From assembly GCA_964016885.1 (NCBI GenBank), contig OZ024742.1, positions 12,834,001 through 12,898,000 of the forward strand: a stretch of 64,000 nt of DNA, in the 5' to 3' direction. Below the pieces are notes generated by a model. It searched no databases. It was given only the letters and a program-made list of their open reading frames with translations, and was not told where the DNA came from. Both the position numbers and the translations under genes were made by a program. The DNA comes from Eledone cirrhosa (Eukaryota). The number at the start of each line of letters is the position of its first letter. Within the stretch, counting starts at the first letter, position 1. Positions 2,759 through 64,000 of the stretch are shown here, piece by piece.

Positions 2759-2974
2759 TCAAAAACATATTACTGAGTGAAATGTTAGATGGGAGACGTT
2801 AAGGTAACTGCTAAGTAAGTTACAAAGACCACACCATCGCCAATCTTCAGCTTTGCAATCAGAACTGACAGATGGTTTTCTCCAACTTGATGCTAGCAGC
2901 AAAGAAGAAAATAGGAAATTAAAGGTGGAAAGGGTCTTCCTACCACTTGAAGGGAAAATACATAGTGGAGAAAA

Positions 2975-3400
2975 CTTTCTCTTTTCATTATTCTTTCAAA
3001 CACTCTTTCTTTCAAATATCCCTTCATTTTTTCTCTCCATTTTTCATATTATCTTTCCGTCTTATACAATTCTTTTCATCTTATACTTTTCTTTATTCTG
3101 TCATGTACGATTCGTTTTTTTCTTCTTTTCTTTTCTCTCTTCCTTTTTTTTATAACTATTTCTTATTATTTGTTTTCACATTTCATTCCATCATTCCACC
3201 GTCTCCCAGTTCATTGCTTCGTTTACAAACCATTCCTTATATTTTCACTGTTGCGGTCATATTTCATTATCTCATTTTTACTTAGTCTTTCTTTTATTTC
3301 TTTCTCCATTAATGTGCTTTTGTATTCTTATTATTTATCATTTTTTTTTTCTCTATTTTTTTCTCTATTTTTTTCTCTCCTCTATCCCATTTTTTCTATA
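2975..3400. repeat. Pyrimidine (T/C)-rich low-complexity tract
   Basis: Long degenerate TTTC/TTTTTTTCTC runs, with a short 15-bp tandem near 3340-3380. Confidence 0.8.
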
Positions 3401-5264: not shown

Positions 5265-5443
<179 letters not shown>

Positions 5444-5543
5444 TTAAGATTAGTGCTCTGAAATCTTTTGCTGGACCGGCAATCGCTCTGTATAATCAGC
5501 TCCTGATTATTACTGGAATTCTATAAGAATTCAGGTTCTATAA

Positions 5544-5634
5544 TTTTCGGCAAAAGCAGGGGAGTACGTGGCTCTGATGAACGCCAACCAGCATGAAACA
5601 GACTGTCAGCTTCTCTCTCATCTTTCGCCGAAAA
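5544..5634 (+). ncRNA. Type I hammerhead ribozyme motif
   Basis: GGCT, CTGATGA (5574-80), stem II ACGC-CAACCA-GCAT (one mismatch), GAAA (5595-98), stem III ACAG-A-CTGT, GTC cleavage triplet (5605-07), AGCT. Outer helix TTTTCGGC/GCCGAAAA. Confidence 0.8.
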
Positions 5635-5944
5635 GAAGTAAGTGACATAGTTACTGCCTTAAAACTGATAGCGTATGGTCTTCTACTCTTCTAAATGTTT
5701 GTAATTAAACATATGGTATATTGGCAAATATACTATACATACATTCATATATATATATATATATATAGTATTGAAGTAAACGAGGTATCGTTTAAGGTAA
5801 TCCAAGTAGAAGTTATGAGTAATCTGTACAGTGGATGATTCTAACCTGCAGTGTTGTTTGACCCAACAACATGTTTACTTGGTTGTGGTGTTAAGATGGC
5901 CGATTTCGGACAGTTCCTAGGTAAGCAGTTCCTGGAGTATTAAT

Positions 5945-6032
5945 AATGAAGAATAACACGGATAAGTTATACAGTAGGGTTTATTCCAAGCGTTAAGCCT
6001 TACTGTATAGCCTGTCTCTGTTATTCTTCATT
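5945..6032 (+). other. ~39-bp-arm hairpin rich in G-U pairs, abutting (TA)n
   Basis: AATGAAGAATAACACGGATAAGTTATACAGTAGGGTTTA pairs with TAAGCCTTACTGTATAGCCTGTCTCTGTTATTCTTCATT. Confidence 0.65.
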
Positions 6033-6049
6033 CTTTCATTATATATATA

Positions 6050-6080
<31 letters not shown>

Positions 6081-51496: not shown

Positions 51497-52800
51497 TCAT
51501 ATATCTACATGTCATATATCTACATGTCTATCATATATCTACATGTTGTCATCTATCTAGATGTTGTCATATATCTACATGTCTATCATATATCTATATG
51601 TCTATCATATATCTACATGTCTACCATTTATCTACATGTCTACCATATATCTACATGTCTATCATATATCTAAATGTTATCATTTATCTACATGTCTATC
51701 ATATATCTACATGTTGTCATATATCTACATGTTATCATATATCTACATGTTATCAAATATCTACATATCTGTCATGTATTATCTACAAGTCTATCATATA
51801 TCTACATGTCTACAATATATCTACATGTCTATCATATATCTATATGTCTATCATATATCTACATGTCCAGCATTTATCTACATGTCTACCATATATCTAC
51901 ATGTCTATCATATATCTACATGTCTATCATATATCTACATGTTATCATATATCTACATGTTATCATATTTCTACATGTTACCATACATCTACATGTTATC
52001 ATATATCTAAATGTGGTCATATCTCTACATGTTATCATATATCTACATGTTATCATATATCTACATGTTATCATTTATCTACACGTCTATCATATATCTA
52101 CATGTTATCATATATCTACATGTTATCATATATCTACATGTTGTCATATATCTACATGTTATCATCTATCTATATGTCTACCATATATCTACATGTCTAT
52201 CATATATTTATATGTTTATCATATATCTACATGTTGTCATATATCTACATGTTATCATATATCTACATGTCTATCATGTAGGATCTACAAGTCTATCATA
52301 TATCTACATGTCTACATATATCTACAAATCTATCATTTATCTACATCTTATCATATATCTATATGTTTATCATATATCTACATGTCTATCATATATCTAC
52401 ATGTTATCATATATCTACATGTTATCATGTATCTACATGTCTATCATATATCTACATGTTATCATATATCTACATGTTATCATGTATCTACATGTTATCA
52501 TATATCTACATGTCTATCATATATCTACATGTCTACCATATATCTACATGTCTATTATATATCTACATGTCTATCATATATCTACATGTTATCATATATC
52601 TACATGTTATCATATATCTTAATGTTGTCATATCTCTACATGTTATCATATATCTACATGTTATCATATATCTACATGCTATCATTTATCTACATGTCTA
52701 TCATATATCTACATGTTATCATTTATCTACATGTTATCATATATCTACATGTTGTCATATATCTACATGTCTATCATATATCTACATGTCTATAATATAC
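51497..52800. repeat. 18/19-bp minisatellite ATCATATATCTACATGT[C]T, ~70 copies
   Basis: Interspersed 18- and 19-bp units; accounts for all the I/Y/H/C-rich ORFs here. Confidence 0.96.
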
Positions 52801-52809
52801 CCACATGAG

Positions 52810-54426: not shown

Positions 54427-54446
54427 ACTACTACTACTACTACTAT

Positions 54447-54491
<45 letters not shown>

Positions 54492-54732
54492 CGTTACTAG
54501 TACTAGTACTACTATTACTACTACTACTACCAGTACAACTACCGCTACTACTACTACAACTATTACTACTACTACTACTACTACCGCTACTACTACTACA
54601 AATATTACTACTACTACTACCGCTACTACTACTATAACCGCTACTACTATAACTACCACTACTACTACTACTGCTACTAATACTACCATCACTGCTACTA
54701 CTACCACTACTACTACTACCGCTACTACTTCA

Positions 54733-54773
<41 letters not shown>

Positions 54774-54900
54774 CGCTACTACTACTACTACTGTTACTAC
54801 TACTACAACGACCACTACTACTACTACTACTACTATTATTACTACTACCATTACTACTACCGCTACTACTACTACTACTACTACTACTGCTACTACCGCA

Positions 54901-54965
<65 letters not shown>

Positions 54966-54992
54966 TACTACTATCACTACTACCTCTACCAC
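54427..54992. repeat. (ACT)n trinucleotide microsatellite, interrupted
   Basis: ~190 triplets; generates the poly-Thr, poly-Val and poly-Leu ORFs. Confidence 0.95.
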
Positions 54993-55058
54993 ACTATATT
55001 TCTTCTATTACTATAGGGTTGTTTTCAGAGAGGGTCACAGTGACCTGACGATCAACAG

Positions 55059-57250
55059 AACAACTGTTTCATTTCACCAACAGATGAACAACTGTTTCAT
55101 TTCACCAACAGATGAACAACTGTTTCATTTCACCAACAGATGAACAACTGTTTCTTTTCACCAATAGATGAACAACTGTTTCATTTCCCCAACAGATGAA
55201 CAACTGTTTCATTTCACCAACAGATGAACAACTGTTTCATTTTACCAATAGATGAACAACTGTTTCATTTCACCAACAGATGAACAACTGTTTCATTTCA
55301 CCAACAGATGAACAACTGTTTTTTTTTCACCAACAGATGAACAACAGTTTCATTTCACCAATAGATGAACAACTGTTTCATTTCACCAACAGATGAACAA
55401 CTGTTTCATTTCACCAACAGATAAACAACTGTTTCATTTCACCAACAGATGATATATATAATTTCACCAACAGATGAACAACTGTTCCATTTCACCAACA
55501 GATGAACAACTGTTTCATTTCACCAACAGATTAACAACTGTTTCATTTTACCAACAGATGAACAACTGTTTCATTTCACCAACATATGAACAATTATTTC
55601 ATTTTACCAACAGATGAACAACTGTTTCATTTCACCAACAGATGAAAAACTGATTCATTTCACCAACAGATGAACAACTGCTTCATTTCACCAACAGATG
55701 AACAACTGTTACATTTCACCAACAGATGAACAACTGTTTCTTTTCACCAACAGATGAACAACTGTTTCATTTCACCAACAGATGAACAACTGTTTCATTT
55801 CACCAACAGATGAACAACTGTTCCATCTCACCAACAGATGAACAACTATTTCTTTTCACCAACAGATGAACAACTGTTTCATTTCACTAACAGATGAACA
55901 ACTGTTTCATTTTACCAACAGATGATATATATAATTTCACCAACAGATGAACGACTGTTCCATTTCACCAACAGATGAACAACTGTTTCATTTTACCAAC
56001 AGATGATATATATAATTTCACCAACAGATGAACGACTGTTCCATTTCACCAACAGATGAACAACTGTTTCATTTCACCAACAGATTAACAACTGTTTCAT
56101 TTTACCAACAGATGAACAACTGTTTCATTTCACCAACATATGATATATATAATTTCACCAACAGATGAACAACTGTTTCATTTCACCAACAGATGAACAA
56201 CTGTTTCATTTTACCAACAGATGAAATATATAATTTCACCAACAGATGAACAACTGTTCCATTTCACCAACAGATGATCAACTGTTTTATTTTACCAACA
56301 TATTAACAACTGTTTCATTTTACCAACAGATGAACAATTGTTTCATTTCACCAATAGATGAACAACTGTTTCATTTTACCAACAGATGAACAATTGTTTC
56401 ATTTCACCAACAGATGAACAATTATTTCATTTCACCAACAGATGAACAACTGTTTCATTTCACCAACAGATGAACAACTGTTTCATTTCACCAACAGATG
56501 AACAACTGTTTCATTTCACCAACAGATAAACAACTGTTTCATTTCACCAACAGATGAACAACTGTTTCATTTCACCAACAGATGAACAACTGTTTCATTT
56601 CACCAACAGATGAACAACTGTTTCATTTCACCAACAGATGAACAACTGTTTCATTTCACCAACAGATGAACACCTGTTCCATTTCACCAACAGATGCATA
56701 ACTGTTTCTTTTCACCAACAGATGAACAACTGTTTCATTTCACCAAGAGATGAACAACTGTTTCTTTTCACCAATAGATGAACAACTGTTTCATTTCCCC
56801 AACAGATGAACAACTGTTTCATTTCACCAACAGATGAACAACTGTTTCATTTTACCAATAGACGAACAACTGTTTCATTTCACCAACAGATGAACAACTG
56901 TTTCATTTTACCAACAGATGAAATATATAATTTCACCAACAGATGAACAACTGTTCCATTTCACCAACAGATGAACAACTGTTTCATTTCACCAACAGAT
57001 GAACAATCGTTTCATTTCACCAACAGATGAACAACTGTTTCATTTTACCAAAAGATGAACAACTGTTTCATTTCACCAACAGATGAACAACTGTTTCATT
57101 TTACCAATAGATGATATATATAATTTCACCAACAGATTAACAACTGTTCCATTTCACCAACAGATGAACAACTGTTTCATTTCACCAACAGATGAATAAT
57201 TGTTTCATTTCACCAACAGATGAACAACTGTTTCATTTCACCAACAGATG
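55059..57250. repeat. 28-bp minisatellite AACAACTGTTTCATTTCACCAACAGATG, ~78 copies
   Basis: Period 28 (55059, 55087...). A recurrent short variant carries ATATATATA. Confidence 0.97.
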
Positions 57251-60846: not shown

Positions 60847-61309
60847 GCTCTGGGTTCCTCTCGTACTCAACGTTATATTATATTAGGGCGGTGGATAGGC
60901 AGTATCGGTAGAGGGTCGGACGCCATGCTTTGCAACAAAGAGTTACGGCCCTTTATGGTCTGAGTTCAAATCCCGCCGAGGTTAACTTTGCCTTTCATCC
61001 TTATGGGGTCGATAAAATAAAGTACCAGTAATACAGTGGGATAATTGCTGGCCTTGTGCCAAAAGTAGAAACGATTATTAGTATAGTATGGCGGTTAACA
61101 GCAACTTCCTTTACATTTTCTTTAATATTGCAACATTAAAAGAATATATCCTTCTGAAAGAATCGCGATCAAAGTATTTGTAATGTTATTTCTGTATATA
61201 TTTAAAACATATTTGTTATGTTATTCTACGGTAAATTTATTTATATGCTGTGTATAATAAAAACTCTACTTTCTATATATAACATTGATTTATGAGAGGA
61301 ACCCAGAGC
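60847..61309. mobile_element. Putative TIR element (MITE) containing a nested SINE
   Basis: GCTCTGGGTTCCTCTCGTACTCAACGTTATAT mirrored by ATATAACATTGATTTATGAGAGGAACCCAGAGC (18/19 terminal match). No clear TSD. Confidence 0.55.
60886..61075 (+). mobile_element. Full-length family-A SINE
   Basis: GGCGGTGGATAGGCAGTATCGGTAGAG head, B box, body and tail. Confidence 0.9.
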
Positions 61310-61790
61310 GATAGTGACTTAGCTTAACTTAACTAGCACTATGTTATTTGTTTATTGGGTCCCTGATTGACAGATCTCTATAATTAGTATCTTTAACGTA
61401 ACTGGTTTTTCTAATACGGTACTTCACCGGCCAATTATGCGGACTCTACTTATTTAATTAAATTTTAAACATTTTTAAGCATTCAATTTTAATTTTGATT
61501 TTAATTTTGATATTAATTTTGATTTTAATTTTCAATTCCTAAAATTAACCCTAGCTTTAACTTCTAAACAATTTTAACATATGTTCTTAAATTTCCGCTC
61601 GTCCGTCATATACTTCCCGTAAGTGTATAGACATTAGCTTGACCCAGGCAGCTTACCATTGTCTGTAACACGATATTCTTCACCCCTTCTCTGGCCTGTT
61701 GTCCGAAGGTTATTAGAGTTGAGAGGTAGTAGAAATTCGCCCAGTAGGCTATACTTTCCCCTACCCGCTTAGCTAACTAACAGGCAACAT

Positions 61791-61944
61791 AATTGTTTCT
61801 ACTTTTGGCACAAGGCCAGCAATTAGCCCAGTGTATTACTGGTACTTTATTTTATCGACCCCATAAGGATGAAAGGCAAAGTTAACCTCGGTGGGATTTG
61901 AACTCAGACCATAAAGGACCGTAACTGGTCTGAGTTCAAATCCC
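61791..61944 (-). mobile_element. 5'-truncated family-A SINE ending in an 18-bp fold-back
   Basis: Reverse tail, body and B box; 61893-61910 is perfectly inverted at 61927-61944. Confidence 0.85.
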
Positions 61945-62400: not shown

Positions 62401-62760
62401 GGGTGGAAGGTTGGCAGAATCAGTAGAGAGTCGATCACTGTGCTACCCGGCATAGAGATACGGCCCTTTACGGTATCAGTTCAAATCCTGCCGAGGTTAA
62501 CTTTGCCTTTCATCATTACGTTTGCGATAAAATAAAGTATCTGTCACTCACTGGGGTCGACTTTCCCCTCCCCTAAAAAATTGCTGGCCTTGTGCCTAAG
62601 TCAGAAACCATTTCCAGCATAGAGTTACATCCCTTTACGGTCCGAGTTCAAATCCAGCCGAGTTTAACTTTGCCTTTAATCCTTATGGGGTCGATAAAAT
62701 AAAGTACCAGTAATGCACTGGAATAATTGCTGGCCTTGTGCCAAAAGTAGAAACAATTAT
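62401..62760 (+). mobile_element. Tandem pair of family-A SINEs (full-length ~62401-62610, truncated ~62611-62760)
   Basis: Two B boxes, bodies and tails head-to-tail with no spacer. Confidence 0.85.
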
Positions 62761-62957
62761 TAGGAACTGAAATAGCATTAGATTAATAGCTGTATAATAT
62801 AAATGGCGATATTCCGTTGGTTTAGTTTGTAGATTAAATGTGTTGAACCTACAGTAATTAATATAAAATATCTTTCGATGCATTCCTTCTTGGCTAGTGT
62901 AAAAGGTAATAACACGTATATTTACAATTAGTGTCTACGCAGTTAAGAGTATGCGTT

Positions 62958-63485: not shown

Positions 63486-63521
<36 letters not shown>

Positions 63522-63525
<4 letters not shown>

Positions 63526-63783
63526 GGCTCCTGGCAAGGACCTTCCCTCGCCGGGTTCCTCTTAACTATATACATACATATGTATATATATATATATAGG
63601 AAAATGTTAGACCCCGATGGCAGAGCTCAAGCCATGTCGACGGTTATTTCTGGACAGAAATAGCCGTCGAAACGGCTTGAGTTCTGCCGTCGGGGTCTAA
63701 CATTTTCCTATATATATATATACATATGTATGTATATAGTTAAGAGGAACCCGGTGAGGGAAGGTCCCCGCCAGGAGCCCAAG
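63522..63783. mobile_element. 262-bp fold-back palindrome centred on a hammerhead stem II; probable truncated/inverted PLE-type pLTR
   Basis: CTTGGGCTCCTGGC...CTG-GA-CAG...GCCAGGAGCCCAAG. The right arm reads stem II, GAAA, stem III ACGGC/GCCGT, C, GGGGTC. Confidence 0.8.
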
Positions 63784-64000
63784 ACGCATCATATGGCACT
63801 ACAACTCCTCTACACTCCAACGAAGACACTGGTCCTTACTACATACCTCATAGATTCTAGGACCACAGAAGAAAAGGAAGAGGAAGGGAAGAGGGTGGTG
63901 GGTCTAGGGTGCGGCGGTGTTGTGGTTGCAACCCGCGGACAAAACTGCAAAAGCATTTCAGCGGGCAATGGCCAGCGACACCCGCTGCAACAGCCACCCC

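Follow-up and report, generated by a model that had tools for sequence, protein, structure and literature searches.

A palindrome in Eledone cirrhosa as a probable head-to-head insertion of an abundant Penelope-like element, with arms ending near a predicted transcript start inside a hammerhead ribozyme

Penelope-like elements (PLEs) with a C-terminal endonuclease (EN+) include the Hydra clade, to which Hydra-1_Obim belongs (Craig et al., 2021, PMC8557442). The Penelope element of Drosophila virilis has an internal promoter within its pLTR (PMC2377424), and the palindromic junctions found between inverted pLTRs were earlier ascribed to self-priming on an antisense template (PMC3846280). Hammerhead ribozymes with a U3-A8 core are known from PLEs of Schistosoma, among which the Cercyon elements display motif pairs on opposite strands, 100-700 bp apart (Cervera and de la Pena, 2014, PMC4209133). 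For PAc, a Poseidon element of Anolis, both target strands are cut and extended in vitro, two internal start sites bound the tail, and the template is predominantly uncleaved RNA (Frangieh et al., 2024, PMC11167929). How PLEs make their inverted ends and tail, and which role the hammerhead plays, are described as unresolved (PMC8557442, PMC11167929), and the element family reported here bears on both questions.

The locus lies in a window, by which we mean the whole 64-kb stretch of Eledone cirrhosa DNA that was analysed, and consists of a palindrome occurring once in that window. Complementarity between its arms (63522-63652 and 63655-63783) extends to 121 of 129 aligned positions, interrupted by a single 2-nt gap in a TA run, and two nucleotides, GA, at 63653-54, form the centre; the fold reaches -229 kcal/mol (z = -33.5), and none of 200 shuffles was equally stable. 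The ~130-bp arms and 2-nt centre were thus correctly described in the first-pass annotation of this DNA, and the right-arm motifs were found where it had placed them, namely GAAA (63669-72), ACGGC-9nt-GCCGT (63672-90), the cleavage triplet with C17 at 63691, and the 3' strand of stem I, GGGGT (63692-96). Since the arms differ by 8 substitutions, we infer that the palindrome is not an assembly artefact from read fold-back. Contigs of four runs were compared with the window; none spans the locus, and they show the presence of the family only. Throughout, element positions are numbered with +1 as the A of AGTCC (which would be 63651), a right-arm window position being the element position plus 63650. 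On this scale, the element part of the palindrome comprises 63596-63711 only, the outer 73-75 nt of each arm being target microsatellite and flank, and at the junction the left arm stands at +2 and the right arm at +5, with one C common to both. The parts are the following:

63489 to 63522, no strand: (CA)n tract, the join point of the inverted copy, with at most 1 nt in common (C 63522)
63522 to 63595, minus strand: inverted copy of the right-hand flank (non-element DNA and TA-rich target), with 3 substitutions and one 2-nt gap relative to the original
63596 to 63655, minus strand: left element arm, from +61 back to +2, with a mutated GAAA core and 5 substitutions relative to the right arm
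63655 to 63711, plus strand: right element arm, from +5 to +61 (the 3' end T1), with C 63655 common to both arms
63658 to 63668, plus strand: 3' strand of hammerhead stem II, its native 5' partner missing in the window copy
63669 to 63691, plus strand: GAAA core, stem III with a 9-nt loop, and GUC, with the cut predicted after 63691 (+41/+42)
63692 to 63696, plus strand: 3' strand of stem I
63712 to 63783, plus strand: TA-rich target and mirrored flank segment, with no match among the fetched loci

The inverted copy ends at the (CA)n tract, as had been noted at first reading. The window copy has the inversion and lacks the tail, and the 5' half of the hammerhead core is missing from both arms, so that this copy is predicted to be inactive in cis, with no self-cleavage.

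Other repeats were observed in the same window. A 41-kb satellite array (7543-48880) comprises ~1,092 copies of a 38-nt unit with 87% matches and a strong strand skew, and further tandem arrays lie at 582-1927, 51497-52807, 54427-54983 and 55058-57250, with units of 52, 18, 3 and 28 nt, respectively. Copies of a SINE-like repeat of ~150 nt occupy 60929-61081, 61789-61926, 62444-62596 and 62611-62763, two of them forming an inverted pair (138 nt, 96%, spacing 710 nt). A dispersed repeat with 2,143 candidates of 79-85% identity covers 63853-64000 and positions 2190-2390 of locus L001; further along it, a peptide ending in ..QRISLTILRGNA presumably resembles the restriction-like nuclease end of non-LTR elements.

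The element forming the palindrome belongs to a large family. Exact matches in the 3.0-Gb genome (G000) number 52,327 for a 25-mer from the right arm and 40,769 for a 23-mer from the downstream tail, versus none for the reversed controls, while the 111-nt palindrome centre gave 3,973 first-look candidates, all 40 of the scored places being matches. Copies extending upstream accounted for 1,353 matches, and the 30 examined run via a 3' UTR into an RT-endonuclease ORF. Locus L173 presents a whole insertion, consisting of (TA)n, an inverted truncated copy, a partial tandem, an intact ORF of 719 aa, the 3' UTR, the hammerhead and again (TA)n; nearly all insertion ends of the family abut (TA)n. This single ORF encodes an RT followed by a C-terminal GIY-YIG endonuclease, with the motifs RWR (37, of the RWK type), DKT (117), YRDD (348), CNCPDRSIC (a CxCX5C linker, 572) and VIY..YIG (591); CCHH is absent from the ORF, and no cysteine pair lies within the GIY-YIG core. 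Its Atlas neighbours at 0.96-0.99 belong to clusters with HTH_animal, GIY-YIG and RVT_1 in some members, and Pfam and PDB sequence searches with the ORF returned nothing significant. As assigned by its motifs, the family is a very abundant PLE of Hydra-clade type. The Penelope-like origin and inverted 5' end proposed at the outset are therefore borne out, with an RT ORF upstream in long copies such as L173, and the features of a PLE insertion unit were all found, i.e., the partial tandem, the inverted 5'-truncated copy (both in L173) and the one-sided tail (91 of 98 pairs combining the two 3' ends, see below). As inverted truncated ends and a one-sided tail have already been described for PLEs, a single palindrome of this kind is ordinary.

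Within L173, where a natural long-copy hammerhead occupies 2895-3008, two tandem 3' UTR copies (1780-2948 and 5340-6066) differ by an internal deletion of ~440 nt. A sister family (L253-L282; 4,315 matches, 30 examined) displays the same design of 3' ends and the same 5' pile-up as described below, and its one long copy, L269, carries a two-sided change in stem II. Other repeats with hammerhead-like CTGANGA cores occur in the left flanks of L031, L040, L044, L054 and L057 and in the flanks of L013 and L016, where they adjoin the palindrome's element or stand head-to-head with it, which suggests several more PLE families in this genome.

The long copies carry the 5' hammerhead half that the window copy lacks and fold as whole hammerheads; the half hammerhead recognized in the right arm indeed corresponds to their 3' half. 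The expected CTGANGA upstream of stem II was correct as to the existence of a 5' half and wrong as to its letters: CUGANGA occurs in 0 of 39 long copies and UUGANAA in 29. The absence of CTGANGA upstream, named in the annotation as a ground for refutation, thus holds to the letter, although solely because the core is a U3-A8 variant. Position 7 of UUGANAA is free (A 10, U 7, C 6, G 6), and the 3-8 pair is kept as U-A. In unconstrained folds, the three-way junction was formed by four of four natural long copies, with z values from -0.4 to -2.3, little above shuffles; in 11 aligned copies, 92.8% of cells were paired versus 30-53% with slid partners, and covariation (2 two-sided changes in these 11 copies) was not above shuffles. 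Rfam yielded no hammerhead in the window or in one long copy, and only AT-rich microRNA-like matches below threshold. According to these fold models, the long copies form a whole type I hammerhead of the U3-A8 variant, for which self-cleavage is predicted. A pattern search for CTGANGA gave 63 matches, of which the 30 examined were junction or flank coincidences and not intact ribozymes of this PLE family. In L036, L041, L043 and L045, loci selected by the search pattern, the left arms share two changes that create CTGAAGA, and the right arms do not.

The same folds locate the palindrome junction relative to stem II. In each of the four folded long copies, native stem II forms a long hairpin with a 5' strand of different sequence and an apex at about -10 to -3, upstream of +1. 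The window junction (+2/+5) lies at the edge of an internal loop on the 3' side of this hairpin, the native loop being 5-15 nt upstream of it. Hence the first-pass annotation erred in placing the fold-back point exactly at the stem II loop, and the 15-bp "stem II" seen in the window is, as modelled, the palindrome (i.e., the inverted copy) itself and not the native helix.

The ends of copies were compared in a sample of the first 100 tail matches and 89 core-match contexts of contig C1 (first 17 Mb), exact matches only. Two fixed 3' ends were recognized, T1 at +61 and T2 at +140, separated by a tail of 79 nt that is present in the T2 arm and absent from the T1 arm; 91 of the 100 tail arms ended exactly at +140, and 61 of 75 partners exactly at +61. 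Among 98 head-to-head pairs, 91 were T1+T2, one was T2+T2, six were fragmented or otherwise unclassed, and none was T1+T1. At the 5' side, 52 of the 100 tail-anchored arms ended in the 15-nt zone from -5 to +9 and none from -6 to -40, the remainder being one at -61, eight beyond -200 and 39 spread over +10 to +99 (pile-up versus uniform, p about 3e-21). Because BLAST ends are accurate to about 3 nt, exact extension was done on 211 arms, in which the commonest 5' end was +2 (26 arms), with 0, +1, +4, +5 and +7 also frequent, so that the stop is a zone ~10 nt wide and not a single base. The arms thus end mainly in a zone around +1 and not at the stem II loop. The +1 site reads TTAGTC or TCAGTC in all subfamilies and TTAGTT in the sister family, with the pile-up at the same place. 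We take TTAGT/TCAGT to resemble the insect initiator, and a downstream-promoter-element match near +28 to +33 to be too weak for use.

The commonest junctions between arms are overlaps of 1-5 nt or blunt joins, and one pair clearly joins two subfamilies. In the twin priming of LINE-1, two priming events lead to an inversion junction with a short overlap; there, each of the two pieces derives from a different part of one RNA, whereas the Eledone arms usually overlap and start from two fixed sites. With these observations, the palindrome is probably a short non-coding head-to-head PLE insertion, whose arms would end at a likely capped transcript start inside the hammerhead. The enzyme would cut both strands of (TA)n, priming one cDNA at T1 and another at T2; the transcript would start at +1, inside the ribozyme, and the cDNAs would run off after 60 or 140 nt; finally, their ends would anneal via overlaps of 0-5 nt and copy each other, in the manner of twin priming. 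The half hammerhead would follow from such a start, since the 5' end of the transcript would hold the 3' half of the ribozyme only.

A second, minor stop was observed at the predicted ribozyme cut. In one subfamily, an A precedes +42 in 51 junctions (one of them an insertion in native context) and +47, the sole control position, in 12; about four of the latter are point changes, which leaves 50 versus about 8. In 13 of the 51, +42 is the end point of both arms, which are separated by a single A, and the six of these that were fetched have different flanks. At L294 (G000:C2:263516320-263516770), an intact upstream half runs to GUC and is followed by 7 extra bases ending in A5 and then by +42, which may represent a tailed cleavage product joined to a downstream piece. 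From these junctions, the chance that cut RNA is sometimes copied, i.e., that cleavage lies behind the +42 stop, appears a little better than even; alternatively, synthesis may stall at the foot of stem III, in favour of which ends are somewhat frequent across +35 to +43 as well.

The window copy itself departs from the common pattern, as both of its arms end at T1 and its mirror runs 73 nt into the flank, up to (CA)n. T1+T1 copies with a mirrored flank are rare: none occurred among the 98 pairs of the unbiased sample, and one among 69 listed pairs, classed by eye; the latter, L024, combines a T2 arm with a flank-mirroring T1 hairpin like that of the window. The best fit for the window copy is DNA snap-back, favoured by the extension of the mirror 73 nt into the flank: a T1 cDNA stopped at +2 probably snapped back to leave a hairpin-capped end, which, once opened at a point ~73 nt inside the flank, would have become joined to (CA)n. 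We infer an off-centre opening of this kind from the succession of mirrored flank, arm ending at +2, arm starting at +5, and flank. The fold point of this copy is set by the +1 stop together with the 1-nt overlap. Hairpins of flanking or foreign DNA also abut the element just 5' of +1 at L032, L046, L053 and L130, which indicates that DNA snap-back synthesis occurs elsewhere in this PLE family. An unlikely, although conceivable, alternative is that the window copy began as an ordinary T1+T2 insertion, and that a later cruciform break with hairpin-end repair replaced its T2 tail with the mirrored flank; this would suit the rarity of T1+T1 copies with mirrored flanks and should give the same final sequence. 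Against it, divergence is similar in the core arms (5 differences in ~57 nt) and in the unique flank arms (3 in ~45 nt), in keeping with a single event, and L024 keeps its T2 arm beside the mirrored unit; both points favour snap-back at the time of insertion.

Concerning the family as a whole, the pile-up at +1 to +9 might reflect a structural stall of the RT in the folded hammerhead (stem II region), with joining still by twin priming, an explanation that we consider quite improbable. The zone does sit on the 3' strand of native stem II near its apex, its width of ~10 nt would be in keeping with a stall, and the sister family shows the same spacing, an identity that cannot separate a stall from a transcript start. 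A stall should, however, give graded ends upstream, where the interval from -6 to -40 is empty, and should act on each arm alone, whereas the arms pass +1 together: they did so in 7 of 8 unbiased pairs and in 14 of 17 when selected loci were included, versus 8% expected under independent stalling, in a count classed by eye that omits partners outside the fetched range or stopping before +1. In the other 3 of the 17, one arm stands at +1 and the other beyond it. A stall also leaves unexplained a G specific to +1. With T excluded, the first 100 of 7,589 rows had 57 G, 33 C (9 of them native) and 10 A before +1, whereas for the control position +4, G numbered 11 in the first 100 of 1,749 rows (both read by eye; p 4e-12). 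Likewise, G preceded 11 of 13 exact +1 ends in the fetched sample and 37 of 101 ends elsewhere, and several junctions display an extra G on both arms. The copying of a cap by reverse transcription leaves an extra G. Copies joined straight to (TA)n have no G excess (8 G, 10 C, 1 A, the rest T, in 100 of 570), and many of the G junctions are also readable as templated by the partner arm. Considering the upstream cliff, the arms passing together and the extra G, the end of the template is the likely cause of the pile-up.

The first-pass annotation had proposed that the ribozyme's own stem II hairpin served as a self-primer. Such an origin, either on stem II or on an antisense template (PMC3846280), with one strand folding back into both arms, is highly improbable for the family. 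It would agree with the 55 of 91 T1+T2 pairs whose 5' ends lie within 9 nt of each other, with the subfamily word being identical in both arms of 43 of 50 pairs (most of the 7 differences being single changes), with the flank-DNA hairpins beside +1 and with the snap-back-like window copy. However, the apparent stem II is the inverted copy, and a template beginning at +1 would lack the native 5' strand, so that the stem II hairpin could not form on it. Further, the T1 arm extends 10 nt or more beyond the T2 arm on the 5' side in 29 of the 91 pairs (the reverse in 7), and 11 pairs have arms without any common sequence; a single fold-back of either polarity cannot make pairs with such arm-private sequence unless deletions followed, and it gives no reason for a second arm ending exactly at T1. 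Later deletions of palindrome centres, which could partly account for one-sided arms, are also a point against the paired-priming model. Finally, that the palindrome is a MITE or another DNA-transposon-like unit moving whole is hardly credible, for although copies are many and the inverted arms short, the junctions vary among copies, the arms are unequal (T1/T2) with no fixed centre and the sequence passes without interruption into the 3' UTR of an RT-endonuclease ORF, a diversity of junctions that refutes this reading, in accordance with the original view of the locus.

What appears to be new here, deduced from the junction statistics of one genome, comprises the probable start inside the hammerhead, the counts pointing to paired priming and the stop at the cut site. 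These counts predict that transcripts begin with a cap inside the ribozyme, that priming occurs in pairs at two sites, and that cleaved RNA is used to some extent. Taken as one scheme, to which we would give somewhat less than an even chance, transcription would start in the element's own hammerhead, two RTs would prime at two fixed sites with their run-offs joined head-to-head, and the +42 copies would record in vivo cleavage by a U3-A8 ribozyme and copying of the cut RNA; with such a start, the 5' end of the transcript could not cut itself, and the 3' copy could. An inverted partner accompanies about 75 of 100 tail-bearing arms; extrapolated to the 40,769 exact tail matches, this proportion corresponds to some 30,000 or more short inverted repeats, which might yield double-stranded RNA if read through. 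Our search of the open-access literature, with part of a retrozyme preprint (10.64898/2026.07.22.740005), found no report of a PLE start inside a hammerhead or of an extra G or cap, of twin priming with PLEs or counts favouring paired priming over self-priming, of PLE copies stopping at the cut site, of octopus editing with Penelope, or of C3U/G8A.

Compared with the Hydra clade, the Eledone family has the same single ORF with RWR, DKT, YRDD, a CxCX5C linker and a VIY..YIG nuclease without CCHH, the same unit of ~3.1 kb with (TA)n targets and a hammerhead near the 3' end, and the same inverted 5'-truncated copy, partial tandem and one-sided tail, as found in L173 (PMC8557442). It differs in its ribozyme, also from that of Hydra-1_Obim: the Hydra hammerheads given in File S2 of that paper have CUGANGA cores and short stems III, whereas in the Eledone family the core is UUGANAA, stem II is long and in two parts, and stem III consists of 5 bp with a 9-nt loop; the tail is 79 nt versus 30-40 nt (PMC8557442). 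With the Penelope elements of Adineta vaga (PMC3846280) and D. virilis (PMC2377424), it has in common the head-to-head inverted pLTR, the palindromic junction and the optional tail. In the D. virilis element, both the start and the intron precede the hammerhead (PMC4209133, PMC2377424), in contrast to the start proposed here inside the hammerhead, and the Eledone counts favour two separately primed cDNAs over the antisense self-priming suggested previously (PMC3846280). The core covariation U3-A8 is the same as in the Cercyon PLEs of Schistosoma, whose hammerheads are, however, minimal and without a stable stem III, while the Eledone ribozyme has a full stem III and a predicted monomer fold (Cervera and de la Pena, 2014, PMC4209133). 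Regarding PAc, a member of a different clade, reads ending at the ribozyme cut were not found in that study, whereas the Eledone copies display the minor stop at +42; on the other hand, paired priming from both cut strands, as observed for PAc in vitro, would fit the arm counts of the Eledone family (Frangieh et al., 2024, PMC11167929).
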